This document shows positions 3,501 to 60,530 of a DNA stretch of 64,000 nucleotides, piece after piece. Under the pieces are notes generated by a model. That model searched no databases and had not been told where the DNA came from. It saw nothing but the letters and a program-made list of their open reading frames with translations. A program made the position numbers and the translations under genes. Numbering within the stretch: position 1 is the stretch's first letter; the number at the start of each line of letters is the position of its first letter. The stretch is from Clostridia bacterium. GTDB taxonomy: Bacteria > Bacillota > Clostridia > UMGS1883 > UMGS1540. The stretch is from NCBI GenBank assembly GCA_017442155.1, contig JAFSAU010000008.1:67649-131648 (forward strand), given 5' to 3'.

Positions 3501-3760
3501 ACAATAAGTTTAATCCGGATGTGGAAATTTCCCGTCAGGATATGATGACGATTATCAGCCGCGGCATGGCACTTTCCGGCGAAAGCGATTTGTCTGCATT
3601 TTCCGATAGCAGTCAGATTGCCGACTACGCACTTTCCCATGTGAAGGCCATGATTGCTTCCGGCCTTGTAAAAGGCAACGCGGACGGTACATTAAATCCG
3701 CTGGGACAAACCACCCGTGCGGAAGCGGCGGTTATCATGCAGCGTATTGTAAATCGATAA
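512..3760 (+). CDS. Secreted multidomain protein: signal peptide, 2x CBM4/9/22-like jelly-roll modules, Fn3-like sandwich, GH-A-like TIM-barrel putative glycoside hydrolase, 3x C-terminal SLH repeats (paralog A1)
   Basis: 1082-aa ORF with an RBS GGGAGG upstream and signal peptide MKKVFALLLAGIMTLTTFTAFA. CBM-type hallmarks are present: 'NPGFE...YELTAWVK...YWDDFSLVG' and 'FEEADD...YQLSMWVKIP...YFDDVELYE'. The central region has 'DHPAHIGWYLWEEP', 'IRDLDPEHP', 'DIIDMDLYP' and 'TQAFEW'. The last ~180 aa are three SLH repeats: '...NVTRGDFAMFLVRALGL', '...ISRQDMMTIISRGM', '...TTRAEAAVIMQRIV'. It is about 75% identical by eye to the protein at 17783-21037. Confidence 0.8.
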   Translation: MKKVFALLLAGIMTLTTFTAFAEEEEAKPIMIAPTVELSADRQTAYSIKERPKKSADYKVVNLEAPTKVAEENGNVEHVLNPGFESSSDTLNLNWGQGGLEGGKWGESGGFFEKKDVHGGSIAAHTVAAEGKNVHFLQSLGNVLGGQEYELTAWVKRVSGSPTISLTCIYRDPETLMSMEYTNRVNLQFGDAPGGVWTRKTIRFTLPEDVISVTLMARLIGGGEAYWDDFSLVGPSRPAKKMSMPEYIAPTADSVNLLKDASFEEADDVKHIKHGTEEEGYWFDRDDDVLRGWYTYSDEEAHTGTKSLKLNCDNNVMPWVGQAIKVKPETTYQLSMWVKIPRGTQETYHFQGDCFTYSSKATEPDNYFKDGRRSLHVYPDFDNNEWQQVVTVFSTPTEAAYYHIMIRTGGNSVSYFDDVELYELSGLSKKIRTFSPDDVFYYSDYEGNGYADLKTYLSTSDEEQKVRFRFYDGEKVLLEEIATVLPDGTQRFNYPLELLSEKKKEYRLEAMMLGPNGEETEDTLSRYIYKYDRPTKLNEAMQLITNGDKVIQNYVLAQGTSPEIMYRISEVGATIGRGIGTVRTDRTERLDVAWQAGMYATTTLFNHEDIRDPEVYAQVVDTINRVKDHPAHIGWYLWEEPKFAGDDIDLDENLRIGAKLIRDLDPEHPLFGVLSERLYSQEFGKYCDIIDMDLYPAQIYDNRRGENVAKGIAMGLEENDWQIPIGIMTQAFEWFDFQPTWNDLRNYVYACMFEGANGFSFHTFGKETSTAENGTCVKPGDERWNGMVKAAEWEYDFIFDHFTKMKAPLFNEGRTEDVWWRTVVRDGELYAIAINMWENQKSTIDIPLVDHTGKIKINGAKAELVEGGDAKTVTITGDTFHIELDNFQVAVYKITPNEAVDFSDVKVTRFRDLQHHVWARDAIIEMDEKGIVNDLSYIAYAPGRNVTRGDFAMFLVRALGLTGDGTEANFDDVSASREYAKDIAIGKAAGILNGVGDNKFNPDVEISRQDMMTIISRGMALSGESDLSAFSDSSQIADYALSHVKAMIASGLVKGNADGTLNPLGQTTRAEAAVIMQRIVNR

Positions 3761-6501: not shown

Positions 6502-9500
6502 ATGAAATTTAGAAAAATCACAGCATTGCTTTGCTCTCTTCTGTTGTTAAACGGCACGGGGGCAGTAGCGGCAGAAACAGCTGCTCCCTATAGCCGGGAG
6601 GAAATCTCGGCACATACCCTTGTGGCCGGAGAAACAGCACAGGAGCTTTTGGTGAATGGCGGTTTCGAGATGTTAGAGGCAGAAACGAAGCTGCAGGTCT
6701 GGGCATTGTCAACCGGTCCGCTTGTGGAAGGCGGTAGCGAGAGGACAGAAGATGCGCACAGCGGAAGCTATGCCCTCCGTCTTTCAGCCGGTGAGGAGGT
6801 GCACCTTACCCAACAGGTGGCAATCAGCCGTCTGAACAGTGGAAAGATATGTGAGCTATCTCTCTGGGCAAAGCCGGAGAAAAAGGGTAGCAGTCTGACG
6901 CTTACGCAGACCTTTGGCATCCGTAATGAGCAGATACAGGATGAGGTGCTTGAAGATGTAAACATCATTTCATTTACAGACGCGGAGGCCGGAAAATGGA
7001 CACAGAAGATACTGCGCTTTACGATTCCCGAACGCATCTCATATACGGCAATAGATATTTCGGTGCAAAAGGACGAAGCGGTGCTTATCGACGATGTATC
7101 CCTTCTTCTGGAGGGGGCACCGCCAAAGGTGGAAAAGCCCACCAAAAAGGAACCGGTTTTAGAAGACTTTGAAATGGTAAAGAACGGCGACTTTGAACAA
7201 GGTACACTTAACTGGGGCGTGGAGCCCGGCCAGTGGAATGATTTTATCAGTATTGTACCCGGCGGCGCGACCGGCAACTGTGTAAAAATCTTCAAAGAAC
7301 CGGAAAATAGTGGAAAAAACCCACAGCTTCTACAGCATATTTCCGGCTTTGAGGAAGGTGCGGAATATCAGATGCATTTTCGGTTAAAATCGCCGGGCGT
7401 TGACAAGCTGGAATCTATATCCTACGGCTTTCGCTGGGGTGTAAACGGCGTGCGCATGGGACATGACAAAACGGGTAACATGGTACTTCTGCAAAATGAT
7501 AACTGGATTGACGTGTATCTGGACAGTGTTTGTCCACCCGGGGCAAACACCTGCATGATTGACTTCCGGCACTTTGCACCGGTCGGTTATTACATGATTG
7601 ACGATGTAAGTGTTTATATGACGAAAAGAGCGCCTTATGCTGAGGTGGAAACGGATGAGATATTCTATTACACCGAATGGAAGAAGGGCGAGGTGACCGT
7701 TCGCGACAGAACAAAGAACGGTGCGCTGAAAAACGGACGTATTGTGCTGGAAATCCGTGACGGCGAAACGGCTGTATTTACGAGCGAAGGCAGTATGACC
7801 GGCGAAGTGAAGAAACTGGAATTCCCTGTGAGTGTTCTGTCAGAAAAAGGAAAGGAATACACGGCCCATACAGCGGTGTATAACGAAACGGGTTCTCTTT
7901 TGGAGGAATACGACAGTGCAATTTACCGCTACGACAGACCTACTTACTTAGGTGCCGACGGTGTGTTCAGAAAGCCGGACCGAAACGGCGTGATGCGAGA
8001 ATATAATGTTGTCATCGGTAACGGCGTAACGAATCCGAGAATCAGTATTGTCGCCCCCTGCGGTGTTACAGTTGTCCAGCTTGTGGGCGGGGCATCCCTG
8101 CCACTGAAGGAACGGTTGGATATGGTCGAAAAGGAAGGCCTTTTAGCGCAGATTGTTCTTTATAGCGGAAAAAAGAGCGGCGGACACCCGGAAATGTTGC
8201 CACATACAATTGATAAGGTCATGGCAGTAAAGGATCATCCTGCTTTGTTTGGTTATAAAATTCAGGATGAACCCATGCAGAAGGGAAATTCGGATGCGGA
8301 GCTGGCACTGGCATACAAGACAATTCGTGACCTCGACCCCAACCATCCGATTTACACGGTAGACTCCGGTGAAGCAAGTTACGAGAGGCTGGGTAAGTTC
8401 TGCGACCTTATGGATATTGATGTATACCCCGGAAAGGGAGCGGATCGCGCCACACTGCTGGGTGAAAAAATTGAGGCGGCTGTTAAAGCGGTCAAGGGTC
8501 GCAAGCCGGTAGGGCTCCTGCAGCAGGCTTTTGAACTTGACGGTACGTTCCCCACAGCCGATGAATTTCGTCACTATGCCTATCAGGCACTGTTATCAGG
8601 TGCATCTTCTTTTGGGTATCATTCCTTCGGGGAATCGACCACACCACTGAGTCCCGAGCATTCCTCGTGGCCGGGGCTTGTGAAGATGGCCGAGTGGGAA
8701 CAAGGATTTATGTTTGATAGCCTTGTAAAGACGAAGAATCCGATGCTGAATGAGGATAAAACAGATGAAGTATGGTGGCGCACCTACGTGCTGGACGGCA
8801 AAATTTATGCCATTGTCTTAAACCGACAGCTGGAGGAAAATACAGCAACGGTGACCCTTACGGGGGTGAACGGCGGCTATGGGGCAGAGGGGTATACCGT
8901 AAAGCGGATTGCAGGCGGTGAAGAAGAAACCGTTGCCGTAAACGGCACCACCTTTACGACAAAGCTTATACCCCAGGCAGCATATCTCTATGAGATAACG
9001 CCGAACACCCCCGTGGATTTCAGCACGCTTCCCACAATGAAATTCCGCGATTTGACAGGATATAATTGGGCACAAAACGCAATTTCGTCCATGGAAAATG
9101 CAGGCGTGGTTACGGGTACAACAGACTATCTGTTTTCGCCCGGCGAAAAAATTACCCGAGGTGATTTTGCGTATTTCCTGATAACCGCCTTGGGACTTAC
9201 GGGAGAGGAGACTACATCCTTTTCGGATGTTCCGTCAGATGCCTATTATGCTAAGGCGATTGCCGCAGGGAAGGCAGTCGGTATTCTAGAGGGTGTCGGA
9301 GACAATCTTTTCGACCCGCATCGGGAAATTTCACGACAGGATATTATGACGATTACGGCCCGCGGTGCAAAGTTGGTAAAAGCACTTGCAGAAAGTGATA
9401 CCGGAGTGCTGGATACCTTTACGGATGCGGGACAGATTGCAGATTATGCACGTCAGAGCGTGGCAGATATGGTAAATGCAGGCCTTATTCTTGGCAACGG

Positions 9501-9591
9501 AGACGGTACCGTAAATCCTTTGGGTTACACAACGAGAGCAGAAGCGGCCGTCATTGCAAGTCGTATTTATAACATGCCTGTTGGTGCATAG
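6502..9591 (+). CDS. Secreted CBM4/9-like x2 + GH-A-like TIM barrel + C-terminal 3x SLH protein (paralog A2)
   Basis: 1029-aa ORF with RBS AAGGAG and signal peptide MKFRKITALLCSLLLLNGTGAVAA. Motifs include 'LLVNGGFE...YELSLWAKPE', 'MVKNGDFEQGTLNWG', 'IYRYDRPTYLGADGVFRKPDRNG', 'DHPALFGYKIQDEP', 'IRDLDPNHPIY', 'DLMDIDVYP', 'LQQAFEL' and 'EVWWRTYV'. Three C-terminal SLH repeats follow. It is very similar to 9603-12716. Confidence 0.8.
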   Translation: MKFRKITALLCSLLLLNGTGAVAAETAAPYSREEISAHTLVAGETAQELLVNGGFEMLEAETKLQVWALSTGPLVEGGSERTEDAHSGSYALRLSAGEEVHLTQQVAISRLNSGKICELSLWAKPEKKGSSLTLTQTFGIRNEQIQDEVLEDVNIISFTDAEAGKWTQKILRFTIPERISYTAIDISVQKDEAVLIDDVSLLLEGAPPKVEKPTKKEPVLEDFEMVKNGDFEQGTLNWGVEPGQWNDFISIVPGGATGNCVKIFKEPENSGKNPQLLQHISGFEEGAEYQMHFRLKSPGVDKLESISYGFRWGVNGVRMGHDKTGNMVLLQNDNWIDVYLDSVCPPGANTCMIDFRHFAPVGYYMIDDVSVYMTKRAPYAEVETDEIFYYTEWKKGEVTVRDRTKNGALKNGRIVLEIRDGETAVFTSEGSMTGEVKKLEFPVSVLSEKGKEYTAHTAVYNETGSLLEEYDSAIYRYDRPTYLGADGVFRKPDRNGVMREYNVVIGNGVTNPRISIVAPCGVTVVQLVGGASLPLKERLDMVEKEGLLAQIVLYSGKKSGGHPEMLPHTIDKVMAVKDHPALFGYKIQDEPMQKGNSDAELALAYKTIRDLDPNHPIYTVDSGEASYERLGKFCDLMDIDVYPGKGADRATLLGEKIEAAVKAVKGRKPVGLLQQAFELDGTFPTADEFRHYAYQALLSGASSFGYHSFGESTTPLSPEHSSWPGLVKMAEWEQGFMFDSLVKTKNPMLNEDKTDEVWWRTYVLDGKIYAIVLNRQLEENTATVTLTGVNGGYGAEGYTVKRIAGGEEETVAVNGTTFTTKLIPQAAYLYEITPNTPVDFSTLPTMKFRDLTGYNWAQNAISSMENAGVVTGTTDYLFSPGEKITRGDFAYFLITALGLTGEETTSFSDVPSDAYYAKAIAAGKAVGILEGVGDNLFDPHREISRQDIMTITARGAKLVKALAESDTGVLDTFTDAGQIADYARQSVADMVNAGLILGNGDGTVNPLGYTTRAEAAVIASRIYNMPVGA

Positions 9592-9602: not shown

Positions 9603-12600
9603 ATGAAACTCACAAGACTATGTACACTCTTTTGCGCTTTCCTGATGCTGTGCAGTACAGAAATTCCTGCACAGGCGGCGTCTTATTCCTTTACGGAAAT
9701 TTCTGCACACACACTGGTGGATAAAGTGAACGCACAGGAACTTTTGGTAAATGGTGATTTTTCCACGTCGGAGAGCGACACGAAACCGCTGGGCTGGGGA
9801 ATAAATCCCGGAACCTTTGGTGCAGGTGAAACCGCTGAGCATATCCGCGGTAATGCATCGTGTGTAAAGCTGAACTACCCCGGTACAGGATATGCATCAC
9901 TTTCCCAGACTGTGGTGCTGAAGGATGCGGATGGAAAGAAATGTCAGTTTTCTGCACGGATAAAAGGCGAACCCTCGGAACAGGATGTTCGTGTCCGTAT
10001 ATCGTTTTGGGTTTCGCAAAACGGCACGGTGGTAGAACATTCCGATGTTATTAACGTGTTTTTTGCTGATATAAACACAAATACATGGACACAGAAGATT
10101 ATTGCATTTACGTTGCCGGAGAACATTCAAAGAATTACAATCCGCGCACAACTGCACAGCGATCTTGCGATGTATGTGGATGATATGTCTCTGCGTATGG
10201 AGGGGCTTGCAGAGGCAGACGCAGAGGAAAAAAAGCCTGTGCTGGAGGACTATGAGATGCTTGTGAATGGCGATTTTTCGGAAGCAAGTGAGGACGGTCT
10301 GACAGTTACGGGCTGGCGGCCGGAGCCGGGAAAGGGCGGAACCTTTGACGGCCGGGGCGCAGTGCTGGAAAATGACGGCGATGCACAGGGGAACTATGCA
10401 AAGGTCCTGACCGGAGAAACATTGCCGCAGCTGCGGCAGACGGTTACGGGACTTATGCCGACAGCGGAGTACCGCCTGACGTTTAAGTATAAAAATCCAA
10501 CCGCAAACGCCGTAAGTTTTTCCTGCCAGATGCAGTACAGAAAAGGAACAGCAGACATAGAGCTGGACGGCACAAAGAATATGATGGCGTATAGTAGTCA
10601 AACATGGCAGAACGGATTTTTTGATTTTGAATGTCCGGAAGAAGCGGATGGCTGTCTTGTCAGTTTCCGGAATCTTTCAGCCGCCGGGGAGCTTTACATT
10701 GATGATGCCAGCTTGTATATGACAAGAAAGCCCTACCTTGCCCTTGTAGAGACGGATGAACGTTTTTACTATACGGAGTGGAAAACCGGCTTTGTTACAG
10801 TAGAGGACAGAGGGAACGGCGAATCTCTTGCCGGTGGAAAAGCAGTTTTTACTGTTTTGGATGGCAATACAGCGGTGCTTTCGCCGCGGGAAAAGACGCT
10901 GACAGACGAAAAAACTGTATTTGAATTTTCTACAGCGCAGGCACTTTCCGAAAAGGGAAAGGAATATACGTCCGAGGTAAAAATTTATGATGCAGATGGC
11001 AAGCTCGTAGAAACCCAGTGCCATCCCATCTACCGGTATGACCGGCCCACATATCTGGGGGCAGACGGCGTGTTCCGTAAGCCGGACCGAAACGGTGGCA
11101 TGATAGAGAAGAATATTTCTATCGGAAACAACGTACCCTTTACGCTCATAGATAATACGGGAGATGAGATAAGCGATCTTGGAATCACCGTGGTGCAGAT
11201 GGGTACGGATGAGGCAAAACGTCCGCTTCTGGAGCGTATGGATGCGGTAGAGGCGGCCGGCCTGCATGTGCTTATTTCTCTTTATAACGGAAAGAAGAGT
11301 GGCGGTCACCCTGATATGCTGGAAAATACCGTGCAGACGGTAAATGCAGTCAAAGATCATCCTGCACTTTTTGGGTATAAGGTGCAGGATGAGCCGATAC
11401 AGAAGATGAATACAGAGGATGAACTGGCAACGGCCTATAAGCTGATCCGGGATCTTGACCCGCATCATCCTATTTATCTGGATGATTCGGGGGAAGGTTC
11501 TTATAAACGTATGGCTCGGGTCTGCGATATTATGGACATTGACCACTACCCATCGACAGGGGCCTACAGAGCCTCTGTCATCGGTGAAAAAATCGAGGCG
11601 GGCGTAGCGGCAGTAAAGGCCAGAAAGCCGGTATTGCTTCTGCAGCAGGGCTTCGAGATTGGCGGAGAAATGCCGAGCGCAAATGAGTTTCGTCACTATG
11701 CGTACCAAACGATGTTTTCCGGCGGCTCAGCCGTAGGATATCACTCCTTCGGGGGCGAGCCGGGACATCTGGCACCGGGGCTTGACGAATGGGACGGTTT
11801 ATGCAAATTTGCAGATTGGGAGCTTACCTTCCTGTTCGATGCCACCGTCAACCGCAAGTATCCCATGCTAAGCGAAGAAAAGACGGATGCCGTCTGGTGG
11901 CGTACTTATGTAAAGGATGGTAAAATCTATGCCGCAATCCTGAACCGGAAAGTGGCAGAAGAAAATGTGGCCGATGTGGTACTTTCTGATTTTGACGGCA
12001 CGATATCTGCTGATGGCTTTATGGCAAAACGGATTGCAGGCGGAACGGAAGAAACCATAACAGAAACGGGTAACGTTTTCAGGAAGAACCTGGAAGGCAT
12101 GGCCGCATATTTATATGAAATCACGCCAAAGAATACCATGGACTTCAGCGGCCTGAAAACCACAAAATACAGAGACCTGACCGGGTATGGTTGGGCATAC
12201 AACGCTATCTTGACAATGGAAGAAGCCGGGGTTGTCAATGATAAAACAGCGGTAAGCTTTGCACCCGGTGAAAATATTACCCGTGGCGATTTTGCCTCTT
12301 TCCTGATTCGGGCACTGGGGCTGACAGCAGATTCCACCGAAAATTTTGCTGATGTGCCTGCAGATGCACCGTATGCAAAGGAAATTGCAACAGGGAAAAA
12401 GCTTGGTGTATTGAACGGCATTGGTGACAACAGGTTTAATCCCGAAGGCGAAATCACCCGGCAGGACCTTATGGCAATCGCAGCCCGCGGTATGCGGGTT
12501 TGCCGTGAGCTTAATGAAGGAGAGGAGGAGATGCTGCAGGGCTATGCCGACGCCGGACTGATTGCGGAGTACGCAAAGCTGGATGTTGCCGCAATGGTGC

Positions 12601-12716
12601 GTGCTAATATCGTAAAAGGCAATGCGGACGGTACAATTAACCCCCTTGGCAATACAACGAGAGCTGAGGCGGCGGTCATAGCGAACAGAATGAGTCAGTG
12701 GAAGAAGGATCCATGA
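9603..12716 (+). CDS. Secreted CBM4/9-like x2 + GH-A-like TIM barrel + C-terminal 3x SLH protein (paralog A3)
   Basis: 1037-aa ORF with RBS AAGGGGGA and a signal peptide. It shares the motif set 'IYRYDRPTYLGADGVFRKPDRNG', 'DHPALFGYKVQDEP', 'IRDLDPHHPIY', 'DIMDIDHYP', 'LQQGFEI' and 'AVWWRTYV'. Three SLH repeats sit at the C-terminus. It is a tandem paralog of 6502-9591. Confidence 0.8.
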   Translation: MKLTRLCTLFCAFLMLCSTEIPAQAASYSFTEISAHTLVDKVNAQELLVNGDFSTSESDTKPLGWGINPGTFGAGETAEHIRGNASCVKLNYPGTGYASLSQTVVLKDADGKKCQFSARIKGEPSEQDVRVRISFWVSQNGTVVEHSDVINVFFADINTNTWTQKIIAFTLPENIQRITIRAQLHSDLAMYVDDMSLRMEGLAEADAEEKKPVLEDYEMLVNGDFSEASEDGLTVTGWRPEPGKGGTFDGRGAVLENDGDAQGNYAKVLTGETLPQLRQTVTGLMPTAEYRLTFKYKNPTANAVSFSCQMQYRKGTADIELDGTKNMMAYSSQTWQNGFFDFECPEEADGCLVSFRNLSAAGELYIDDASLYMTRKPYLALVETDERFYYTEWKTGFVTVEDRGNGESLAGGKAVFTVLDGNTAVLSPREKTLTDEKTVFEFSTAQALSEKGKEYTSEVKIYDADGKLVETQCHPIYRYDRPTYLGADGVFRKPDRNGGMIEKNISIGNNVPFTLIDNTGDEISDLGITVVQMGTDEAKRPLLERMDAVEAAGLHVLISLYNGKKSGGHPDMLENTVQTVNAVKDHPALFGYKVQDEPIQKMNTEDELATAYKLIRDLDPHHPIYLDDSGEGSYKRMARVCDIMDIDHYPSTGAYRASVIGEKIEAGVAAVKARKPVLLLQQGFEIGGEMPSANEFRHYAYQTMFSGGSAVGYHSFGGEPGHLAPGLDEWDGLCKFADWELTFLFDATVNRKYPMLSEEKTDAVWWRTYVKDGKIYAAILNRKVAEENVADVVLSDFDGTISADGFMAKRIAGGTEETITETGNVFRKNLEGMAAYLYEITPKNTMDFSGLKTTKYRDLTGYGWAYNAILTMEEAGVVNDKTAVSFAPGENITRGDFASFLIRALGLTADSTENFADVPADAPYAKEIATGKKLGVLNGIGDNRFNPEGEITRQDLMAIAARGMRVCRELNEGEEEMLQGYADAGLIAEYAKLDVAAMVRANIVKGNADGTINPLGNTTRAEAAVIANRMSQWKKDP

Positions 12717-13286: not shown

Positions 13287-13332
13287 CCGGCACACCGGAA
13301 AGAAAACAAAAATTTAGGAGGATTGAACGAGT

Positions 13333-14916: not shown

Positions 14917-14936
14917 ACAATTGGAGGTAAGACAAA

Positions 14937-17782: not shown

Positions 17783-20700
17783 ATGAAAAAGATAATAGCA
17801 ACCCTTTTGGCAGGCTTTATGTTGTGTTCCGGTGCCGCAGTTCTATCCGCCCCCGCAGAGGAAAGGGAGTACCCCTTCAAAATTTCCCCCACGGTGGAAA
17901 TGCGGGAGGATGGGGAAGCCTATTCAATCAAGGAGCGTCCGATAAAAGAAGGCGATTATAAAATCCAAACCTTAACAAAGCATACAAAGATAGCGGGGAA
18001 AAATGGAGATGAAAATATTTTCCCGGACGGCGGCTTTGAAAATGCAAAAGAAACCTTTCTTACCGGGTGGAGCGGAAACGGCGTTGAAGGCGGCGTGATC
18101 GGTGAAACCAATGCCTTTATTGTGGATGATACCGCAGAAGGCAAAAAGGCACTCAAGCTATCCGGACCGGAAGGCAAAAATGTACACGGTGTACAGGTGT
18201 TTACGAACATGATACCGGGTGAGGAATATGAATTATCCGCTTGGTGTAAACGGGTTTCCGGCACAGCCAATATTTCTTTAGGCTTTGGTTATGTTGAACC
18301 GGAGACAGACATGAGTCTGGAGTACGGCAATCGAGTGAACTTAAGCTTTGCCGATGCCCCGGCCAATACCTGGACACAGAAAATCATTCAGTTTACGATG
18401 CCGGAGGATGCCAATAAAGTAACTTTGATGGCACGTCTTATGGGCGGCGGTGAAATCTATTATGACGGTATTACGATTCTCGGCCCTCAGAAGCCGGTAG
18501 AGGTTGCAACAATGCCGGAGTATGTCAAACCTAGCGAAGGTACGGAAAACGTCTTTAAAAACGGGGGCTTCGAAGAAGGAACGGAAGTCACGCATATTAA
18601 GCACGGAACGGAATATGAAGGCATTTGGTTTGACCGTGACGACGATGTTATGAAAGGGCACTTTACCTATTCGGATGCGGAAGCACATTCGGGCAAGCAG
18701 TCTATTCATTTAAAGGGCGATAATTTGAATATGCCCTGGCTGGGACAGGTCATAAAGGTTGAGCCGGAAACCACCTATCAGATTTCAGCTTGGGTAAAGG
18801 TGGTAGATCCAAGAAATGTTAATTTCCGTTTCCAGGGTGACGGGTATAAAAATTCCCCGGAGCAGACAGCAGAAAACTATATCTCGGATGCACGAACCAC
18901 AGTCCATCCCGGTATAGATCCGAAAAACCCTGCGTGGCAGCAGATTGTCGGCAACTTTACAACCCATCAGGATGCGGAGTATTATTGCTTTATGCTACGT
19001 GGCGGTGACAAGATACAGGATATGTATTTTGACGATATAGAGCTTTATCCGCTCGCAGGTCTCAGCAAAAAGCTTCGTAGCTTTATTCCGGATGATGTGT
19101 TCTACTATTCTGATTATGAAGGAAACGGGTATGCTGATATAACTACCTATAAAAGTACAACCGACGAAAATCAGAAGGTACGTTTTCGCTTTTATGATGA
19201 AGAAAAGGTTGTAAAGGAAGAAATTGTTACGCTTCCCGAGGAAGGGAAATATCGTTTCCATTACCCCTTGGAGCTTTTGGCTGAAAAGAAAAAGGAATAT
19301 AGGCTTGAAGCTATGATGTTAGGCGCAAATGGGGAAGAAACAGACGACTTTATGGAACGTTTCATTTATAAATATGATCGCCCCACCATGCTGAATGAAG
19401 CATTGGAGCTTATGACGTCTGACGGAACCAAAATTGAAAATTACATACTGGCGCAGGGTACAACGCCGGCGGTTATGTGGCAAATTCCCGAAGTTGGGGC
19501 TACAATCGGCCGTGCAATCGGTACTTGGCGAACGGACAGAATCGAACGGTTGGACGTAGCTTACGAAGCCGGAATGTATGCTACTGTTACCTTATTTAAT
19601 CATGAGGATATTCGTGATCCGGAGGTGTATGCCGATGTGGTAAATACAATTAATATGGTAAAAGACCATCCGGCACTTATCGGCTGGTATTTATGGGAAG
19701 AACCGAAATTTGCAGAGTCTACCTATGATCTGCAGGAAAATATCCGTATTGGTGCGAAGCTGATTCGTGACCTGGATCCCAAGCATCCTCTCTTCGGTGT
19801 TGTTTCTCAGCCGCTCCATGCAGGAGAACTTGGTAAATTTTGCGACATCTTAGACATGGATATTTATCCCGCACAAACATATGACGGACAACGTGGCATG
19901 CGAATTGCAGAAGCAATTTCTATGGGTCTGGAAAGTAATGATTGGCAAAAGGTAGTGTCTATCATGACCCAGGCCTTTGAGTGGTTTGAATTCCAGCCTA
20001 CATGGAATGATCTCAGAAACTATATTTATATGGCCATGTTTGAGGGCGCGGGTGGATTCAGCTTCCATACTTTCGACAAAGTAGGCGGTATTGCCGAAAA
20101 TGGTACGGGGGTTCAGCCCGGGGACGAAAGATGGAATGGTATGGTGAAGGCATCAGAGTGGGAATATGATTTTATCTTTGACCACTTTGTTAATCAAAAA
20201 GCCCCGCTCTTTAATGAGGGCCGTACAGAGGATGTCTGGTGGAGAACAGTTGTGCGGGACGGAGAACTGTATGTGATTGCTGTAAACACCTGGGAAAACA
20301 AGGAAAGTACGGTAAATATTCCGCTTGTCGACTATACTGGCAAAATTAAAATAAACGGTGCAAAAGCAGAACTCATAGAGGGCGGCGAAGCAAAAACAGT
20401 AAATATTTCCGGTGATACCTTCCCTGTAGAACTCGAGAAATTCCAATCAGCCGTCTTTAAGATTACACCGAACGAAGCTGTTGATTTTTCCGGTGTTAAG
20501 GGCACACGATTCCGTGACCTGCAGCACCATGTATGGGCAAGAGAGGCCATAATTGAAATGGATGATAAAGGCATTGTAAATGACCTTTCGGCAGTTGCTT
20601 TTGCACCAGGTAGAAACATAACCCGTGGCGACTTTGCAATGTTCCTGGTGCGTGCTTTGGGGCTTACCGGAAGCGGTGCCAAAGTAAGCTTTGACGATGT

Positions 20701-21037
20701 TTATACAAATAGAGAGTATGCAGAGGCCATTGCCATAGGCAAAGAGGCAGGTATCTTGAACGGGGTAGGGGATAATAAGTTTAATCCGGATGCTGAAATT
20801 TCCCGTCAGGATATGATGACGATTATCAGCCGTGGTATGGCACTTTCGGGTGACAGCGATTTGTCGGCATTTTCTGACAGTAGCGAGATTGCCGATTACG
20901 CACTTTCTCATGTGAAGGCAATGATTGCTTCCGGTCTCATAAAGGGAAATGCCGATGGTACCTTAAATCCCCGCGGCAATACAACCCGCGCAGAGGCGGC
21001 CGTGATTATGCAGCGGATTATAAACCGGTATATGTAA
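17783..21037 (+). CDS. Secreted CBM4/9-like x2 + GH-A-like TIM barrel + C-terminal 3x SLH protein (paralog A4; sister of 512-3760)
   Basis: 1084-aa ORF with RBS AAGGAG and signal peptide MKKIIATLLAGFMLCSGAAVLSA. It is near-collinear with 512-3760: 'FIYKYDRPTMLNEA', 'DHPALIGWYLWEEP', 'IRDLDPKHPLFGV', 'DILDMDIYP', 'TQAFEWFEFQPTWNDLRNY'. Three C-terminal SLH repeats are present. Confidence 0.8.
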   Translation: MKKIIATLLAGFMLCSGAAVLSAPAEEREYPFKISPTVEMREDGEAYSIKERPIKEGDYKIQTLTKHTKIAGKNGDENIFPDGGFENAKETFLTGWSGNGVEGGVIGETNAFIVDDTAEGKKALKLSGPEGKNVHGVQVFTNMIPGEEYELSAWCKRVSGTANISLGFGYVEPETDMSLEYGNRVNLSFADAPANTWTQKIIQFTMPEDANKVTLMARLMGGGEIYYDGITILGPQKPVEVATMPEYVKPSEGTENVFKNGGFEEGTEVTHIKHGTEYEGIWFDRDDDVMKGHFTYSDAEAHSGKQSIHLKGDNLNMPWLGQVIKVEPETTYQISAWVKVVDPRNVNFRFQGDGYKNSPEQTAENYISDARTTVHPGIDPKNPAWQQIVGNFTTHQDAEYYCFMLRGGDKIQDMYFDDIELYPLAGLSKKLRSFIPDDVFYYSDYEGNGYADITTYKSTTDENQKVRFRFYDEEKVVKEEIVTLPEEGKYRFHYPLELLAEKKKEYRLEAMMLGANGEETDDFMERFIYKYDRPTMLNEALELMTSDGTKIENYILAQGTTPAVMWQIPEVGATIGRAIGTWRTDRIERLDVAYEAGMYATVTLFNHEDIRDPEVYADVVNTINMVKDHPALIGWYLWEEPKFAESTYDLQENIRIGAKLIRDLDPKHPLFGVVSQPLHAGELGKFCDILDMDIYPAQTYDGQRGMRIAEAISMGLESNDWQKVVSIMTQAFEWFEFQPTWNDLRNYIYMAMFEGAGGFSFHTFDKVGGIAENGTGVQPGDERWNGMVKASEWEYDFIFDHFVNQKAPLFNEGRTEDVWWRTVVRDGELYVIAVNTWENKESTVNIPLVDYTGKIKINGAKAELIEGGEAKTVNISGDTFPVELEKFQSAVFKITPNEAVDFSGVKGTRFRDLQHHVWAREAIIEMDDKGIVNDLSAVAFAPGRNITRGDFAMFLVRALGLTGSGAKVSFDDVYTNREYAEAIAIGKEAGILNGVGDNKFNPDAEISRQDMMTIISRGMALSGDSDLSAFSDSSEIADYALSHVKAMIASGLIKGNADGTLNPRGNTTRAEAAVIMQRIINRYM

Positions 21038-51632: not shown

Positions 51633-51883
51633 TTAAATCACTCCTTAAAAAGATTCTGTATTCAGTATATCAGAAGGGTGAATAGATTTCAACCCTTTTT
51701 AATTTTTTTAAAGTAAAAATGTTAATTTTTAGTAAGCATAGCGTAATTTCAGATTTTTTAAAAAAGTGAAATCTTAAAATAAGACGAATTTTGATATAAT
51801 ATTGTTAAGATTGCTTATAGTATATAAGTGCAAAATCATTTATAATGAAATCAACAATATTGTTAATTGGGGAGCGATACAAA

Positions 51884-52633: not shown

Positions 52634-53664
52634 GCAAACCTATAAAGCTCGGTATGGTAGGTCTCGGACGCGCCGGCTACGGGATGCACCTGAAAGAAAT
52701 GGAAGGGAAGGAGGACCTTTTTTCTATTACTGCCGTGTGTGATGTGGAGCCGGACCGGTGCGAGGCCATGAAAGAAAAGTACGGCTGTAAAACCTACATA
52801 AATGTGGAGGATTTGGTAGAGGACCCCGATGTGGAGGTGGTGGATATTGCCACCCGCTCCTGCGATCATTTCCGCCACGCGAAAACAGCACTGGAAGCCG
52901 GAAAAATTGTTTTCCTGGAAAAGCCCATTACGGAAACATATGAAGAAGCAAAGGCACTGATGGCACTGAACGAGAGCCTTGGCGGCAACAAGCTTTATAT
53001 CCGGCATAACCGCCGTTTTGAAGCGAAGTTCATGCAGGTGAATAAAATAATCGAGTCCGGTATTTTAGGGGATGTGTACCTGATTCGCCGCACTGTTGCG
53101 AATTATTCGCCCAGAACGGATTGGCAGACGCTTTCCCAGTATGGCGGCGGACAGCTCTTAAACTGGGGACCGCATATCGTGGACCAGGCACTGTGTTTTT
53201 GTGGTGGCGAGTATAAAAGAGTACAGGCCATTACAAGACAGGTGACCGCAGCAGGGGATTGTGAGGATTTTGTCCGCGCCGTTTTCGAGGGCGTAAATGA
53301 CAGAATTGTGGAAATCGAGATAAGTGGCGGAACGGCATTGCCGATACCGGAATACGTATTGTACGGCACGCGGGGTGCGCTGATTGATAAGGGAAAGACG
53401 TATACAATCAGGTGTCTGGCCGATTCGTATGTGATTCCGGAAAGAAAGGCGGACCCCCACACGCCCGAGGGTGCAAAGTTCAAGGCTTCAGAGCCGCTTC
53501 CCTTCGTAGAAGAGGAAAAGGAATGGGAAACCAATAAGCTGGACCATACCTGGACGTATCTTTACGAAACAGTGCGGGAAGGAAAAGCTTATCCCATAAA
53601 GAGTAAGGAAGCACTCAAGGTCATGGAAACAATTGACGAAATCATGCACCAAAATGTGCGCTAA
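52630..53664 (+). CDS. Gfo/Idh/MocA family NAD(P)-dependent oxidoreductase
   Basis: The ATG at 52630 is preceded by GGAGGA and overlaps the upstream stop (ATGA). The Rossmann N-terminus is 'IKLGMVGLGRAGYGMH'. 'FLEKP' and 'RHNRRF' are present. Confidence 0.8.
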   Translation: MSKPIKLGMVGLGRAGYGMHLKEMEGKEDLFSITAVCDVEPDRCEAMKEKYGCKTYINVEDLVEDPDVEVVDIATRSCDHFRHAKTALEAGKIVFLEKPITETYEEAKALMALNESLGGNKLYIRHNRRFEAKFMQVNKIIESGILGDVYLIRRTVANYSPRTDWQTLSQYGGGQLLNWGPHIVDQALCFCGGEYKRVQAITRQVTAAGDCEDFVRAVFEGVNDRIVEIEISGGTALPIPEYVLYGTRGALIDKGKTYTIRCLADSYVIPERKADPHTPEGAKFKASEPLPFVEEEKEWETNKLDHTWTYLYETVREGKAYPIKSKEALKVMETIDEIMHQNVR

Positions 53665-53712
53665 GTGCAGGGTACACTTTAAAATAAAAGTAAAAACAGG
53701 AGGTAATAAAGG

Positions 53713-55274: not shown

Positions 55275-58200
55275 ATGAAAAAAATACTAACAGTTTGTTT
55301 GTCTCTTCTGCTGTTGTTTGGCACGGCGGGAGTGCTTGCGGCTGATATGACAGACATCGTGACAAACGGCGGCTTTGAAGAGTATGCAGACCATATGCCC
55401 ACAGGGTGGAGTGTTCCGGTGGGAACACCGGGAGAGGATATCACAATCTCCGATGCGGCAGAGGAAGGAAAGGCTTCTGTCCGTCTTTCCGGAAAAAGTG
55501 ATAATGCATATATCAGTCAGGAAATAGAAGGCTTACGTGCCGGTGCGAAATACACGCTTTCTTTTTATATGCTCAGAAAGAAAGGCACTGAGATTACAGC
55601 CCGCGTTGATTTTTCCTACACGGAAAACGGAAGCAGACGGTATTTTTCCGATAATGCCGTCGTAACACCCCTGGGGGAAACGGAAATCGGAAAATGGATT
55701 AAAAAGGATATTCAGTTCACCGTTCCGCCCGGCACGGAAAAAACAGTAATTGCATTCCGCAAGGTAGGGGAGGCAGACGTATACTTTGATACTGTTTCCG
55801 TTTCCGGTGGAGACGAGAGTGGTGAGATTGCAGAGGTAGAGAAAACCGGCACCTGGACGCCCAGTGTCTTCGAGGACGCTGACAACATGATTACTAATCC
55901 TGATTTAGAGAAGATTTCCGACAATTTCCCCGCAGACTGGACACCCATTGCAAAGGATAAGGTAACCCTCAACACCAACAAAGAGTATGCAAGATCGGGT
56001 GACAAGTCTATTAAGATTACAGCGCAGGATTCCAGCTTGCCCTGGGCAAAGTTTGTTATCAGTGAAGGCATTATACCGGGGGCGGAATGTACGTATTCTG
56101 CATGGGTATATTCTCCGACGGAAGCCAACAACGTTGGTTTTAAAACGGAATATTATGTGCAAAACTATGACCATTCCGTTATGACGGGCTTCGCCAATTC
56201 TCCCCGCGTAAACCCCCGTGCAGCAGACGGATGGGTGCAGATAACAGGCACCGACATCATCCCCGATTCCTCTGATTCCGTAACGATTTATATACGTATG
56301 TATGGGCAGGGTGAGGTTTATATTGATGATGTGGAATTCAAACTCACAAAAGGCCCGGAAGCTTTTAATACTTTCCTTACAGATGAAGTATTCTATTATA
56401 GCGAATGGGAAGGTGCAGGCAAGGCAACCGTGACAGCGAACACCACATTTTATCCTGAATTTGCAGGCATGCCCCTGCACTTTACGGTACAGGATAAGGA
56501 AATGGTAATCTATGAAGAAACCATTCCCCTCCATGAATCGGGTAGCACTACCTTTGAGTTTCCGCTTACAGCGCTGGAAGAAAAAATGAAGGGATACACC
56601 ATCCGCGTAAAACTACACGACCATGAGGGTGGCTTTATTGCGCAGAAACAGGATACGGTTTATAAAGTGGACCGACCGAAGTATATTACCGAAGAAGGAT
56701 ATTATGTGGAAAATGGCGAACGGTTTGACCCCGTGTATCTGTATCACATTGCAAGAACAGAAGAAGATTTATCCAAAGCTTCGGAAGCAGGCTTTAACAT
56801 GATTCAGGGATATCCCGTGCAGGAACAGCTTGATCTGCTTGCAGAACATGGCATGAAGTGCTTTGCAGTTCTCTATACCGGCGGCTCCTCGGGCCAGAGT
56901 GCAGGTCACGAATCGAAAATTGAAAATACTATAAAACATGTAACCCAGTTTAAAGACCATCCTGCCATATTCGGCTGGTCCCTCATGGACGAACCGACCC
57001 CGGCGGCTTGGGAAGACCTGAAAAGAGCATATATCGAAATTCGCAAAATCGACCCGAATCACCCTGTTTTCATCACCATGAACAGTCATTTTGATACGTC
57101 CGGTCGATTTGCAGATACCATTTCTGCCGATAGCTACCCCTATGGTTTTTCACCCTTTACGACGACAGATTTTAAAAACGTAGATAAAGTGGTCGATATT
57201 GTTCGTAACCGTAAACCGGTGTATGACCTCCTTCAGGCTTTTGATTATCGGAATTCCTACCCCACAGCCAATGAAATGCGGAATATGATGTACCAGAATT
57301 TCTGGGCAGGGGCGGAAGGTATCGGCATATACTCTTGGAACGATTCCGGAAGAAATGAGGACGGCACAGCCATTCCGCTTTACGATACTCATCTTTGGGA
57401 ACCCATTACATCTTTCTTTGAACTGGAATATGACGAAGTGATTGACCACTTTGTATATAAGAAATATCCGACCTTCAATGAAGTAAGAGAAGAAGGATTC
57501 TGGTACCGCTCCTGGGTAAATGACGGAAGACTCAGCCTCGTTCTTTTAAACCGAAAGGACGAGGAGAATGTAGAGGCAACCGTAAATCTTACAAGTGCAG
57601 ACGGAAAAGTCAAAGTGGAAAACTTTACCGCACGGGTCATAAACGGTGCGGAAGCGGGAATCATAACCGGTAAAGACGGCACGTTTAAGGTAAATCTTGA
57701 ACCGGGACAGACAATTTTGTATAGCATTGATGTAGATAAGAATCTTTCCGGCACGGTTTCCAGCGGCTTCTTCGATATGTATCAGCACGGCTGGGCAGAA
57801 GAAGCGGTAAAAACCTTAAATGAAAAAGATGTTTTATACACAAACGGTCACAAATACTATCCCGGCGAAAATGTAACACGTGCAGATTTTGCATATATGC
57901 TGATGCGTGCTCTGGAGATTCCAGGGGCAGAAGCGGAGCAGTTTGCCGATGTGAAGGAATGGGATTACTATAAGGATGAACTTTCCGCCGGTCGTGATGC
58001 AGGTCTTTTGAACGGCATGGGCGAAAACATTTTCGGTGTAGATAATGACATTTCCCGTCAGGACATGATGGTCATGTGCATCCGTGCACTGGAATATACA
58101 GGAAAGCTGGAAGGCGCACAGGCGGCTGACCTAACCAAATTTACCGATAGCGCATCCATTGCAGATTATGCCGTGGAAGCCGTTGGCAAAATGGTAGGCT

Positions 58201-58301
58201 CCGGCCTCATCGTCGGCAATGCCGATGGTACGGTGAATCCCCTCGGCAATGCAACAAGAGCCGAAGCGGCAGTGATGATTGCACGTCTTATGGCACTTTG
58301 A
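55275..58301 (+). CDS. Secreted CBM4/9-like x2 + GH-A-like TIM barrel + C-terminal 3x SLH protein (paralog A5)
   Basis: 1008 aa with RBS AAGGAG and signal peptide MKKILTVCLSLLLLFGTAGVLA. Motifs include 'IVTNGGFEEYADHMPTGW', 'VYKVDRPKYITEEGYYVENGERF', 'DHPAIFGWSLMDEP', 'IRKIDPNHPVF', 'ISADSYP' and 'LLQAFDY'. Three C-terminal SLH repeats are present ('...NVTRADFAYMLMRALEI'). Confidence 0.8.
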   Translation: MKKILTVCLSLLLLFGTAGVLAADMTDIVTNGGFEEYADHMPTGWSVPVGTPGEDITISDAAEEGKASVRLSGKSDNAYISQEIEGLRAGAKYTLSFYMLRKKGTEITARVDFSYTENGSRRYFSDNAVVTPLGETEIGKWIKKDIQFTVPPGTEKTVIAFRKVGEADVYFDTVSVSGGDESGEIAEVEKTGTWTPSVFEDADNMITNPDLEKISDNFPADWTPIAKDKVTLNTNKEYARSGDKSIKITAQDSSLPWAKFVISEGIIPGAECTYSAWVYSPTEANNVGFKTEYYVQNYDHSVMTGFANSPRVNPRAADGWVQITGTDIIPDSSDSVTIYIRMYGQGEVYIDDVEFKLTKGPEAFNTFLTDEVFYYSEWEGAGKATVTANTTFYPEFAGMPLHFTVQDKEMVIYEETIPLHESGSTTFEFPLTALEEKMKGYTIRVKLHDHEGGFIAQKQDTVYKVDRPKYITEEGYYVENGERFDPVYLYHIARTEEDLSKASEAGFNMIQGYPVQEQLDLLAEHGMKCFAVLYTGGSSGQSAGHESKIENTIKHVTQFKDHPAIFGWSLMDEPTPAAWEDLKRAYIEIRKIDPNHPVFITMNSHFDTSGRFADTISADSYPYGFSPFTTTDFKNVDKVVDIVRNRKPVYDLLQAFDYRNSYPTANEMRNMMYQNFWAGAEGIGIYSWNDSGRNEDGTAIPLYDTHLWEPITSFFELEYDEVIDHFVYKKYPTFNEVREEGFWYRSWVNDGRLSLVLLNRKDEENVEATVNLTSADGKVKVENFTARVINGAEAGIITGKDGTFKVNLEPGQTILYSIDVDKNLSGTVSSGFFDMYQHGWAEEAVKTLNEKDVLYTNGHKYYPGENVTRADFAYMLMRALEIPGAEAEQFADVKEWDYYKDELSAGRDAGLLNGMGENIFGVDNDISRQDMMVMCIRALEYTGKLEGAQAADLTKFTDSASIADYAVEAVGKMVGSGLIVGNADGTVNPLGNATRAEAAVMIARLMAL

Positions 58302-58316
58302 TAAAAGGAGCAAGGT

Positions 58317-60530
58317 ATGTTTTTAAAAAGAATACTTGTGCTGACTCTTTTATGTATCCTATGTCTGTCCCCCGGCACCAATGCCGGGGCGGCAGATGCG
58401 GCAATTACAAATCCGTCCTTTGAAACCCTTCGGGCAGATAACGGATTTCCATCCTCCTGGAGTCGGTCGCATTCTGACCGCATCACAACAAACTCGGATA
58501 AACAGTATGTGCATTCGGGCGATTACTCTCTGAAGTTTGCACAAACAGTTTCGGACTATCCATATGCAAGAACGACCATTACTGGCATTGTCGGCGGTGC
58601 GGAATATACCTTCGGGGCATGGGCACTGACGATGAATCAAAATGTCGGCCTACGGTTTCGCTTCACCTGTATAGACGAAAACGGTGTCTGGCTTCATGAT
58701 GCCATGGGACTTGAAAGCTATAACGGCTATACCGGTTCGTGGTATCATTTTACCGAAAAATTCCGTCCGCCCCGCGGCACAGTCAGCATGTATCTGCAGC
58801 TGAGAATCAGCAGTCCCGGTGAGGCGTATTATGATGATGTATCCATAAGCATGACGGATGGACCGGAAATGCTGTATGATTTTGAAAGTGACAGCACATT
58901 CATTTATTCCGACAGCACCGGGAATGGAACGGTAAGTGTAAAAGTGGATACAGCGTATTATCCTGAGCTTTCGGGGGAGGATGTGACCTTTTCGTTATTC
59001 CGGGAAGATGCACCGGAGACCATACTGAAAACGCAAACCGTGAAGGTGCCGGAAAACGGGGAAGCTTCGTTTTCCTATCCTGTAAGTCTTCTTTCGGAAA
59101 AGCTGAAAGGGTATACCGTAAAATGCAGCTTCAAACCGCCGGAAGGGGAGGAAATCGTAAAAACCCATACGGTTTATAAAGTGGACAGACCGACACATAT
59201 TGATAAGAAAGGCTTTTTCCTGGATGAGAACAACAAAATTTTCACGCCTTCCATTATGTACGGTGTAAATTCCGAGCATTTTGATAAGCTGGAGGAAGTT
59301 GGTGTAAACGCTGTGCAGGGATATCATTCCACGGAGTGGCTCGATGCCCTGCATGAACGGAAAATGAAATGCTTTGTGGTACTGTACGGCGGCGGAAATT
59401 CCGCGGGCAGTGCCGCCCGTCTCAGCACCACAGTGAAGTACGTGAAAAGTGCCATGGAACATCCTGCGGTTTTCGGCTGGCTGATTTTTGACGAACCGAA
59501 TGCTGGAAAATCAACGGATTTGGAAGAATTGGTAAATGCTTATTTGGCAATCCGGGAAATTGATTCCGACCATCCGATTGTTATCACGGCGAATAACCAC
59601 TATGATGTTCTGCATCAGTATACCGATGCAATAATTCAGGACTCCTATCCGTACAACAACACGCGGTTTACCACATATCCGTACACGCGGAATGTGCAGG
59701 CTGTTGCCGAATCGGACGGAAGACCCGTGTATCACCTTATGCAGACCTTTGAGCATTTAAATACCTTCCCCCAGCCACAGGAGGTACGGAATATGCAGTA
59801 CGCATCCCTCTGGGCAGGCTGTAAGGGGTTTGGATGCTTCAAATACAAAGATTGCACAAGTGGAGGGGATAATCTGGATGAAACTGCACTCTGGGCACCG
59901 ATGAAAGCTTTTGCAGAGAGAGAACAGGAAATTGCACTGAATCTTTTTATATATAATAAATACGAAAAGATTGGTGAAGCGGAAACGGAAGCTTGTCAGT
60001 GGGGCGTATGGAAGGATGACGAAGAATATTTCGTCATTGTACGAAGCAAAAAATATAATGAGAGCATAACAGCCGAAGTGTCGGTTACGGCAGAGGGCTC
60101 ATGGCAGGCACAGCCAATTGGGGGCACACTTCAGTCCTTTTCCTCCGGAAACGGCAAGGCAAGTGTTACGGTGGGTGCCGGAGATGTGGTGCTTTTGCGG
60201 ATGAAAAAGGCACTGTTTCTGACAGAGGACGGTGAGCCGGTTACCGAAATTAAAGCCGGTATGAAATTAAATGTTCTTACAGGCGTGGAAACCGATGATA
60301 CAAATAGCCCGTTGCTTTTCATTTCGGTTGTCCGCGAGGATGCGGGAACAGAAGAATGTGTGGATGTCCGCATACCGGACTATACTGTGACAGCATCCGG
60401 CGAAAACAAAAATGTCTACAGCGTGGATGAAACGGTTGAAATTCCACGGGGAATGGGAAGATACAGCGTGAAAATTTTTTATTGGAACCGAAGCCTGCAT
60501 TGCCTGGATGAGGCAAGACAGGTGGGGTAG
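58317..60530 (+). CDS. Secreted CBM4/9-like + GH-A-like TIM barrel protein with C-terminal beta-sandwich instead of SLH (paralog A6)
   Basis: 737 aa with RBS AAGGAG and signal peptide MFLKRILVLTLLCILCLSPGTNAGA. Motifs include 'ITNPSFETLRADNGFPSSW', 'VYKVDRPTHIDKKGFFLDENNKIFTPSIMYGVNSEHF', 'EHPAVFGWLIFDEP', 'IREIDSDHPIV', 'IIQDSYP' and 'LMQTFEH'. The C-terminal ~120 aa end '...KIFYWNRSLHCL'. Confidence 0.8.
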   Translation: MFLKRILVLTLLCILCLSPGTNAGAADAAITNPSFETLRADNGFPSSWSRSHSDRITTNSDKQYVHSGDYSLKFAQTVSDYPYARTTITGIVGGAEYTFGAWALTMNQNVGLRFRFTCIDENGVWLHDAMGLESYNGYTGSWYHFTEKFRPPRGTVSMYLQLRISSPGEAYYDDVSISMTDGPEMLYDFESDSTFIYSDSTGNGTVSVKVDTAYYPELSGEDVTFSLFREDAPETILKTQTVKVPENGEASFSYPVSLLSEKLKGYTVKCSFKPPEGEEIVKTHTVYKVDRPTHIDKKGFFLDENNKIFTPSIMYGVNSEHFDKLEEVGVNAVQGYHSTEWLDALHERKMKCFVVLYGGGNSAGSAARLSTTVKYVKSAMEHPAVFGWLIFDEPNAGKSTDLEELVNAYLAIREIDSDHPIVITANNHYDVLHQYTDAIIQDSYPYNNTRFTTYPYTRNVQAVAESDGRPVYHLMQTFEHLNTFPQPQEVRNMQYASLWAGCKGFGCFKYKDCTSGGDNLDETALWAPMKAFAEREQEIALNLFIYNKYEKIGEAETEACQWGVWKDDEEYFVIVRSKKYNESITAEVSVTAEGSWQAQPIGGTLQSFSSGNGKASVTVGAGDVVLLRMKKALFLTEDGEPVTEIKAGMKLNVLTGVETDDTNSPLLFISVVREDAGTEECVDVRIPDYTVTASGENKNVYSVDETVEIPRGMGRYSVKIFYWNRSLHCLDEARQVG

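Follow-up and report, generated by a model that had tools for sequence, protein, structure and literature searches.

What kind of enzyme, if any, is encoded at positions 55275-60530 of the 64,000-nucleotide stretch of a Clostridia bacterium genome that we analysed (contig JAFSAU010000008.1; the whole stretch is hereafter called the window)? This region consists of exactly two adjacent open reading frames (ORFs) on the + strand, A5 (55275..58301, 1008 residues) and A6 (58317..60530, 737 residues), which have four paralogs, A1-A4, in the same window. A preliminary description of the locus had assigned to all six a glycoside hydrolase (GH) barrel of the clan GH-A type, with the Glu of a D-E-P motif as the acid/base and the Glu of a downstream xFE motif as the candidate nucleophile. 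In our analysis of sequences and predicted structures, the family appears to keep the usual acid residue without the usual second catalytic residue and, because of this combination, probably cuts sugars by an unusual route. We are highly confident of the underlying anatomy, i.e., a GH-A-type barrel with D-E after strand 4, D-x-Y-P at strand 6, and no carboxylate at strand 7; the catalytic mechanism is a more tentative matter.

The core of A5 (residues 453-822) was modelled with AlphaFold2 (AF2) on a 28-sequence alignment. The model has high scores (predicted local distance difference test, pLDDT, 94.1; predicted template-modelling score, pTM, 0.91) and contains eight strand/helix units followed by a beta-sandwich, that is, the (beta/alpha)8 fold of clan GH-A. 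The barrel begins at the YKVDRP motif and finishes with helix 8 (about residues 463-727; 56661..57455, + strand), with DSSP strands at domain residues 35-37, 57-60, 76-80, 113-120, 146-150, 163-166, 197-202 and 230-234, and the C-terminal beta-sandwich (about residues 733-822; 57471..57740, + strand) is packed behind it. The best structural matches of this core all belong to clan GH-A (GH164, GH42, GH140, GH5, GH2 and GH158); a Foldseek search of the PDB returned only generic matches of the TIM-plus-sandwich type (GH30, GH13 and GH140), with TM-scores of at most 0.64.

The six barrel domains are 26-37% identical to each other, and the motifs that they have in common are therefore attributable to homology and not to chance. 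The four remaining paralogs, all on the + strand, are A1 (512..3760, 1082 residues), A2 (6502..9591, 1029 residues), A3 (9603..12716, 1037 residues) and A4 (17783..21037, 1084 residues). In a six-frame regular-expression scan over the whole window, the patterns Y[KR][YV]DRP[TK], [DE]HPA..G[WY].[ILMV].[DE]EP and IR[DKE][LI]D[PS].HP[ILV] each occurred six times, once per paralog and nowhere else. Thus, the first three motifs of the ordered set described previously are indeed shared by all six proteins and by them only, and the variants of the second are as stated (WEEP in A1 and A4, QDEP in A2 and A3, MDEP in A5 and FDEP in A6), whereas the other patterns need correction. The strand-6 pattern D(I/L)xDxD(L/V/H/S)YP matches A1-A3 and fails in A4-A6; the relaxed form D....D.YP fits all six and nothing else in the window. 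At the aligned position of (Q/T)(A/G/T)FE, five paralogs read QAFE, QAFE, QGFE, QAFE and QTFE, whereas A5 reads QAFD, and the sole xTFE of A5 is an unrelated TTFE within the upstream Ig-like domain. The WWR/FWYR pattern is present in A1-A5 and absent from A6, which reads CQWG; it is short and also matches by chance elsewhere in the window.

No GH family had been recognised for these proteins, and the database searches bear this out: the central ~400 residues of all six are covered by no Pfam family, except for a borderline GH2_C match in A5 (75 residues, 20.9 bits versus the Pfam cut-off of 21), for which the other five score nothing; A6 has no Pfam match over its whole length; and NCBIfam has no family for any of the six. 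Since no Pfam or NCBIfam model covers the domain, we consider the barrel to define a distinct family. There is no solved structure of it in the PDB, and our literature search found no characterised family with this set of motifs. The family is thus absent from Pfam, NCBIfam and the PDB; its fold and general class of function are known, and it may already carry a CAZy number. Its size became apparent only through an exhaustive HMMER search with a six-domain profile against 1.84 billion cluster representatives, which was needed because word-indexed protein searches found almost nothing (no protein with a single sequence as the query, and five proteins with each of two profile queries). At thresholds of E ≤ 1e-3, 1e-10 and 1e-30, HMMER retrieved 6103, 2486 and 427 proteins, respectively, with the top 150 matches spanning the whole domain. 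The larger members of the family add CBM_4_9, SLH, He_PIG and Big_9 modules to it. One database protein of 2145 residues (P0007) contains two complete barrel domains; another (P0001), in which a DUF2828 N-terminus is joined to a fragment of a barrel of the A1/A4 (WEEP) type, is probably a chimeric or truncated gene call.

We calculated conservation from 159 family domains aligned to the profile, using A5 numbering. The most conserved positions are E573, D614 and Y621 (100% each), D593 (99%), D572 (98%, otherwise Glu), P468 (98%), D619 and Y586 (97% each) and R467 (96%), followed by Y534 (89%) and Q654 (82%). R467, which belongs to the DRP motif, is unlikely to be an active-site residue; it precedes strand 1, in a segment that appears to match the lead-in hairpin of GH2 and GH158. 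The Glu of the D-E-P motif (D572-E573-P574 in A5, 56988..56996; D392-E393-P394 in A6, 59490..59498, with the strand at residues 385-392 of the AF2 model; both + strand) is the first residue past strand 4 (DSSP strand 113-120 and Glu 121 in the A5 model). Both HMMER and hhalign pair it with the acid/base Glu in the N-E motif of GH158 and of GH2 beta-glucuronidases, and, because of these profile alignments, we regard it as the counterpart of the GH-A acid/base. Its position at the end of strand 4, as envisaged earlier, is thus supported by both DSSP and alignment, and the strand-4 acid/base of clan GH-A is present in 159 of the 159 domains.

The residue in front of this Glu is different. In clan GH-A (GH1, GH2, GH5 and GH42), it is an Asn that hydrogen-bonds O2 of the -1 sugar. 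In this family, residue 572 is Asp in 156 of the 159 domains and Glu in the other 3, and Asn is found only in two GH158-like outgroup proteins (P0004 and P0005). The Asn had been described as consistently replaced by Asp; its loss is family-wide, whereas A1 and A4 read E-E-P, with Glu before the acid/base Glu. At the end of strand 6, A5 has D619-S-Y621-P622 (57129..57140, + strand) and A6 has D442-S-Y444-P445 (59640..59651, + strand), the equivalent of the W-D-x-Y-P motif of GH42 and the N-x-Y motif of GH2; in GH-A enzymes (GH1, GH2, GH5 and GH42), the strand-6 Tyr normally hydrogen-bonds the nucleophile.

The nucleophile itself has no counterpart. Four GH42 alignments obtained with a profile of strands 6-8 span the site, and in three of them the nucleophile Glu of GH42 (PFMLMEQT) is paired with A5 residue 653. 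An hhalign comparison with two GH158-like proteins (98% probability) covers strands 1-6 and stops at KPYIV|TEWGP, and its ungapped extension (KPYIVTEW) also puts the nucleophile on residue 653. This position, which aligns with the strand-7 nucleophile Glu of both GH42 and GH158, is non-acidic: Leu in A5 (L653, 57231..57233, + strand), Met in A6 (M475, 59739..59741, + strand), Thr in A1 and A4, and Gln in A2 and A3. Across 163 domains, it is Leu in 80, Gln in 18, Val in 12, Asn in 12 and Thr in 7, with other residues in the rest. In the wider region 651-658, 88 of the 163 domains contain neither Asp nor Glu.

These data bear directly on the classical model of the preliminary description, a Koshland-type retaining GH-A enzyme in which the D-E-P Glu is the acid/base and the xFE Glu (Asp in A5) is the nucleophile. 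The latter residue, A5 D657 (57243..57245, + strand; Glu in the other five), lies in the loop after strand 7, three residues beyond the DSSP end of the strand and four beyond the canonical position, and its column is not conserved in the family (Glu in 32 of the 163 domains, Asp in 24, Thr in 22, Ser, Arg and Lys in 11 each, Gln in 10, and others). In favour of the model, residue 657 is acidic in each of the six window paralogs and has been retained in the close orthologues of Oscillospiraceae bacterium SIG447, and the loop that follows strand 7 might bend back onto the barrel. However, the chemistry of the family cannot depend on residue 657, because the 88 domains with no acid in 651-658 coexist with the invariance of E573, D572 and Y621. 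We therefore consider the classical model very unlikely. Of the two placements of Glu at barrel strand ends on which that description relied, the one at strand 4 holds and the one at strand 7 fails.

The catalytic centre thus departs from two defining features of clan GH-A. The reading that we favour, although we would put it at somewhat less than an even chance, is that of a retaining glycosidase that uses substrate-assisted catalysis on a beta-linked 2-acetamido sugar (beta-N-acetylhexosaminide, beta-HexNAc), by analogy with families that work in this way. We favour it because three changes, namely Asn to Asp, the deletion of the nucleophile and its mostly hydrophobic replacement, jointly yield the D-E arrangement found in GH20, GH84 and GH123. 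Under this mechanism, catalysis would proceed with neighbouring-group participation, as in GH20, GH84, GH18 and GH123, with the 2-acetamido substituent on the substrate serving as the nucleophile. D572 would polarise the acetamido N-H, E573 would act as the acid/base, and the invariant Y621 would stabilise the oxazolinium oxygen instead of hydrogen-bonding a nucleophile. Where the nucleophile used to be, the mostly hydrophobic replacement would leave space for the acetamido methyl, and the jelly-roll modules would direct the enzyme towards a cell-surface polymer.

The precedent of the GH123 superfamily, described below, speaks for this reading, as do a GH109-like gene adjoining family members in a Clostridia MAG and the surroundings of distant relatives in rumen Bacteroidales. 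In the Bacteroidales, short D-E-type barrels (~400-540 residues) occur in up to five tandem copies (L036, 202-11173; also L045, L048, L050 and L046), in loci with GH92, GH125, DUF4838 (the GH163/GH185 domain), GH20, SusD, DUF4959/5000/5126 surface proteins and a phosphatase, the last of the tyrosine-phosphatase family. These look like loci for N-glycans (which contain GlcNAc) or mannans (cf. the review PMC10154615).

Several observations weigh against substrate-assisted catalysis. With the Bacteroidales relatives, identity amounts to only about 23-25% across a part of the domain, and their context fits other activities equally. The window has no HexNAc catabolism genes around the paralogs, the context being an AraC regulator, an oxidoreductase, a TIM protein and GHL6. 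The A1/A4 subclade has E-E-P, and GH123-type enzymes lose nearly all activity when the Asp is mutated to Glu (PMC11087588). Residue 657, acidic in each of the six window paralogs, might reach into the active site. In addition, about two thirds of the family (~108 of the 159 domains) have Asp or Glu near the end of strand 5, which could serve another mechanism.

The last point leads to a less probable explanation, which we nevertheless regard as a real possibility: a genuine glycoside hydrolase whose non-canonical centre is of another kind and whose substrate need not carry an acetamido group. The nucleophile or base could have been relocated (D619, the strand-5 acid, or D/E572), the enzyme could be inverting with E573 as the acid, or Tyr621 could be the nucleophile, as in sialidases, on an anionic sugar. 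The fold and the conservation data apply to such a centre too. D619 (97%) and Y621 (100%) are located at the C-terminus of strand 6, beside the active site, and the D/E variation at 572 (WEEP in A1, A4, P0012, L004 and L019) is easier to accommodate for a base or nucleophile than for a polariser of the acetamido group. However, canonical GH42 enzymes contain D-x-Y-P too (WDNYP and WDSYP), and we therefore rejected D619 as a newly acquired catalytic acid. The strand-5 acid is absent from A1, A4, A5 and A6, it is not obvious how a hydrophobic Leu in place of the old nucleophile would position a catalytic water, and we know of no precedent for such arrangements in GH-A-like barrels.

The third alternative concerns the surface proteins themselves, and the domain architecture bears on it. 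All six paralogs begin with a signal peptide. A1-A5 have N-terminal Pfam CBM_4_9 modules and three C-terminal SLH repeats; the early assignment of the N-terminal modules as CBM4/9-like proved right, in that they are CBM4/16/22/61-like jelly rolls. In order, A5 contains the signal peptide, two such jelly rolls, an Ig-like sandwich, the barrel, a beta-sandwich and the SLH repeats; its first CBM_4_9 module (residues 27-161; 55353..55757, + strand) matches PF02018 in two stretches (E = 1.5e-12), and its triple SLH cell-wall anchor (about residues 830-1008; 57762..58298, + strand), recognised by Pfam, matches the S-layer protein Sap (3pyw). The full-length AF2 model of A6 (pLDDT 90.1, pTM 0.80) has, after the signal peptide, one jelly roll (residues 30-181), an Ig-like sandwich (186-289), the barrel (290-545), a beta-sandwich (550-636) and an extra beta-sandwich (650-723), with no SLH repeats. 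A1-A6 are secreted cell-surface proteins, with an SLH anchor on A1-A5 and none on A6.

The matches in genomes are mostly from uncultured Clostridia and Oscillospiraceae metagenome-assembled genomes (MAGs) of ruminant and other animal guts, often in tandem arrays of two to four copies. The exact A5 protein is present on 10 contigs of public assemblies, and orthologues of A1-A4 are found in Oscillospiraceae bacterium SIG447 with 83-93% identity and the same gene order, which makes the source of the window a near relative of SIG447. In two other loci (L002 and L006), identity to the window is 79-89% for the TIM and oxidoreductase genes, whereas the family member downstream, at a syntenic site, is ~30% identical to A5; from these identities, the surface paralogs appear to turn over or diversify much faster than the neighbouring genes.

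These features fit non-catalytic pseudo-enzymes that bind glycans and are displayed on the S-layer, similar to GH18 chitinase-like lectins that lack a catalytic carboxylate. Loss of the canonical nucleophile and the SLH anchors together with the adjoining ~900-residue proteins with N-terminal SLH repeats count in its favour, and heavy paralog expansion with rapid turnover is typical of surface binding proteins. Conversely, strict invariance across phyla, as seen at E573, D572, Y621, D619 and Y534, would sooner be expected of a functional active site, relatives occur among glycosidase genes in polysaccharide utilisation loci, and dedicated CBM-like binding modules are already present in the proteins. 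We consider this explanation unlikely.

To follow the spread of the motif pattern, we aligned ORFs from 62 genomic loci. Distant relatives in Kiritimatiellae, Victivallales, Lentisphaerae, Thermoguttaceae, Armatimonadota and rumen Bacteroidales also combine D-E and D-x-Y-P with the lack of a strand-7 acid, whereas the weakest matches were ordinary N-E-P barrels; the distant D-E proteins are below the Pfam thresholds for GH42 and GH2_C. The Clostridia MAG RGIG3022 from goat rectum carries tandem arrays of two to four family genes (L010, L012, L013, L015 and L016; at least 15 copies across these contigs) interspersed with AraC regulators and ~490-500-residue proteins of PF00144 (a serine-hydrolase family; beta-lactamase family). 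Its neighbouring genes also include an L-fucose isomerase and a GH109-like gene, the latter directly upstream of one array.

Returning to substrate-assisted catalysis, the broader evolutionary claim can be worded only with similar reserve: it is plausible, if short of probable, that a widespread family of GH-A descent has abandoned the two-carboxylate Koshland mechanism and converged either on the substrate-assisted D-E arrangement seen in GH20 and GH123 or on some other mechanism without an enzymic nucleophile, and that it has expanded in S-layer-anchored tandem arrays in uncultured gut Clostridia and in N-glycan-type loci in rumen Bacteroidales. If this is correct, the barrels represent a new glycoside hydrolase family of hundreds of sequence clusters, mostly in uncultured animal-gut anaerobes, that has been missed by Pfam and NCBIfam annotation. 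They would also be a natural case in which a clan GH-A barrel has exchanged its enzymic nucleophile for neighbouring-group catalysis, which bears on the evolution of glycosidase mechanisms and on the rule that the mechanism is conserved within a clan. Moreover, ruminant and hindgut microbiomes would contain unrecognised enzymes for HexNAc-containing glycans, such as N-glycans, mucins, chitin and cell-wall polymers.

The neighbours in the window, namely an AraC regulator, a xylose-isomerase-like TIM protein, a GFO/IDH/MocA oxidoreductase, GHL6 and SLH proteins with no recognisable domains, indicate carbohydrate metabolism at the cell surface and name no substrate. In the region 50868-55164, the AraC regulator (- strand) lies upstream of the TIM gene (51845-52633), which overlaps the oxidoreductase gene (52615-53664) by 19 nucleotides. 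In NCBIfam, the oxidoreductase weakly resembles glycoside/disaccharide 3-dehydrogenases, and we take this gene pair (51845-53664) to resemble oxidative (3-keto) glycoside-cleavage modules. A 483-residue protein without any match is encoded between the oxidoreductase gene and A5. Two paralogous ~900-residue proteins (3795-6488 and 60551-63259) carry SLH repeats at the N-terminus, with no further domain recognisable, and they directly adjoin the barrel paralogs, the first between A1 and A2-A3 and the second after A5-A6; they may be S-layer or S-layer-associated proteins. Orthologues of the first are 82% and 64% identical in L003 and L004, respectively.

Between the paralog arrays, 15802-17751 encodes a cytoplasmic-looking protein of 649 residues with GHL6 and GH42M (trimerisation) domains, 91% identical in SIG447 (L003/L020) and uncharacterised. 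In the region 12777-15719, a 527-residue protein (13333-14916) contains a CBM_4_9 module only, and ORFs of 260 (14937-15719) and 169 residues (12777-13286) have no matches. The 260-residue protein is 96% identical in SIG447, far above its neighbours. Neither the 483-, 260- and 169-residue neighbours nor the two ~900-residue SLH proteins have an informative match in Pfam, NCBIfam or the PDB. Further upstream of A5, gatA (47733-49180; Pfam Amidase) is split into two overlapping ORFs with a break near 48340-48350, and the frame is restored by one added base after the ATG at about 48345, corresponding to a 1-nucleotide deletion. This is either a pseudogene or an assembly error; gatB (49182-50618), located downstream, is intact.

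How, then, does the family compare to known glycosidases? The GH123 superfamily combines a consecutive D-E motif and conserved Tyr and Trp residues with substrate-assisted catalysis on a (beta/alpha)8 barrel (PMC11087588). Similar to GH123 and GH20, the family has consecutive Asp-Glu at the end of strand 4 and no enzymic nucleophile, as well as a conserved Tyr and aromatics around the -1 site and a beta-sandwich that precedes the barrel (PMC11087588). The analogy is functional and is not evidence of homology: unlike those enzymes, the barrel is clearly of GH-A descent, and the E-E variant of A1 and A4 has no counterpart among them. Membership in GH123 or GH20 was rejected, as there is no domain match (DUF4091 or Glyco_hydro_20) and no support from the ranking of folds.

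Over strands 6-8, the family resembles the GH42 beta-galactosidases/alpha-L-arabinopyranosidases (3tts, 1kwk and 5xb7) and the GH164 beta-mannosidase (6t5o), with which it shares the strand-6 W/x-D-x-Y-P motif, the pattern P...R..xYQ..x.GA.G..Y of strand 7, helix 7 and strand 8, and the acid/base Glu after strand 4. In the profile alignment to GH42, MDVVSWDNYP corresponds to D....D.YP, and RLWSYQAVAHGAD corresponds to R..xYQ..x.GA.G. However, identity to GH42 and GH164 is only 9-19%, and the paralogs are not GH42 proteins: PDB profile matches to GH42 reach only 1e-4, over strands 6-8, and the paralogs have no Pfam Glyco_hydro_42 match at E ≤ 0.1 and no GH42M trimerisation domain. GH42 has Asn-Glu where the family has Asp-Glu, and a nucleophile Glu (...LMEQT...) where the family has a non-acidic residue. 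GH42 enzymes are typically cytoplasmic, whereas the family is extracellular with CBM and SLH modules.

The best sequence-level matches are the GH2 beta-glucuronidases (1bhg, 6xxw and 3k46) and the GH158 endo-beta-1,3-glucanases (9oro and 6pal). Profile searches of PDB sequences, with matches over strands 2-6, gave E = 3.7e-15 for GH158 and values down to 1.2e-11 for GH2 beta-glucuronidases. Common to all are KDHPA..xW....E, IR..DP.HPV and Y.D......Y over these strands, and an Ig-like sandwich ahead of the barrel. For example, KDHPAvfgyavmDEP corresponds to KNHPAVVMWSVANEP, iDpehPv to LDPSRPV, and ycDilaiDpYp to YVDVICLNSYY. The likeness to barrels of the GH2/GH42/GH5 type that was noted at the outset is correct as to the GH-A barrel and the match of iDpehPv to the GH2 LDPSRPV, and does not extend to the strand-7 nucleophile. 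The alignments to GH2 and GH158 end just before the nucleophile (KPYIV|TEWGP in GH158), N-E is replaced by D-E, and GH2_C reaches the Pfam cut-off in none of the six paralogs, so that they are not members of GH2. For GH158(Pro), a retaining mechanism with Glu143 and Glu229 has been proven by trapping of the covalent intermediate (PMC13195107); Glu229 has no counterpart in the family, which thus lacks a pair of this type (...GNE... and ...TEWGP...). Taken as a whole, the barrel family sits between GH42/GH164, which it resembles over strands 6-8, and GH2/GH158, which it resembles over strands 2-6.

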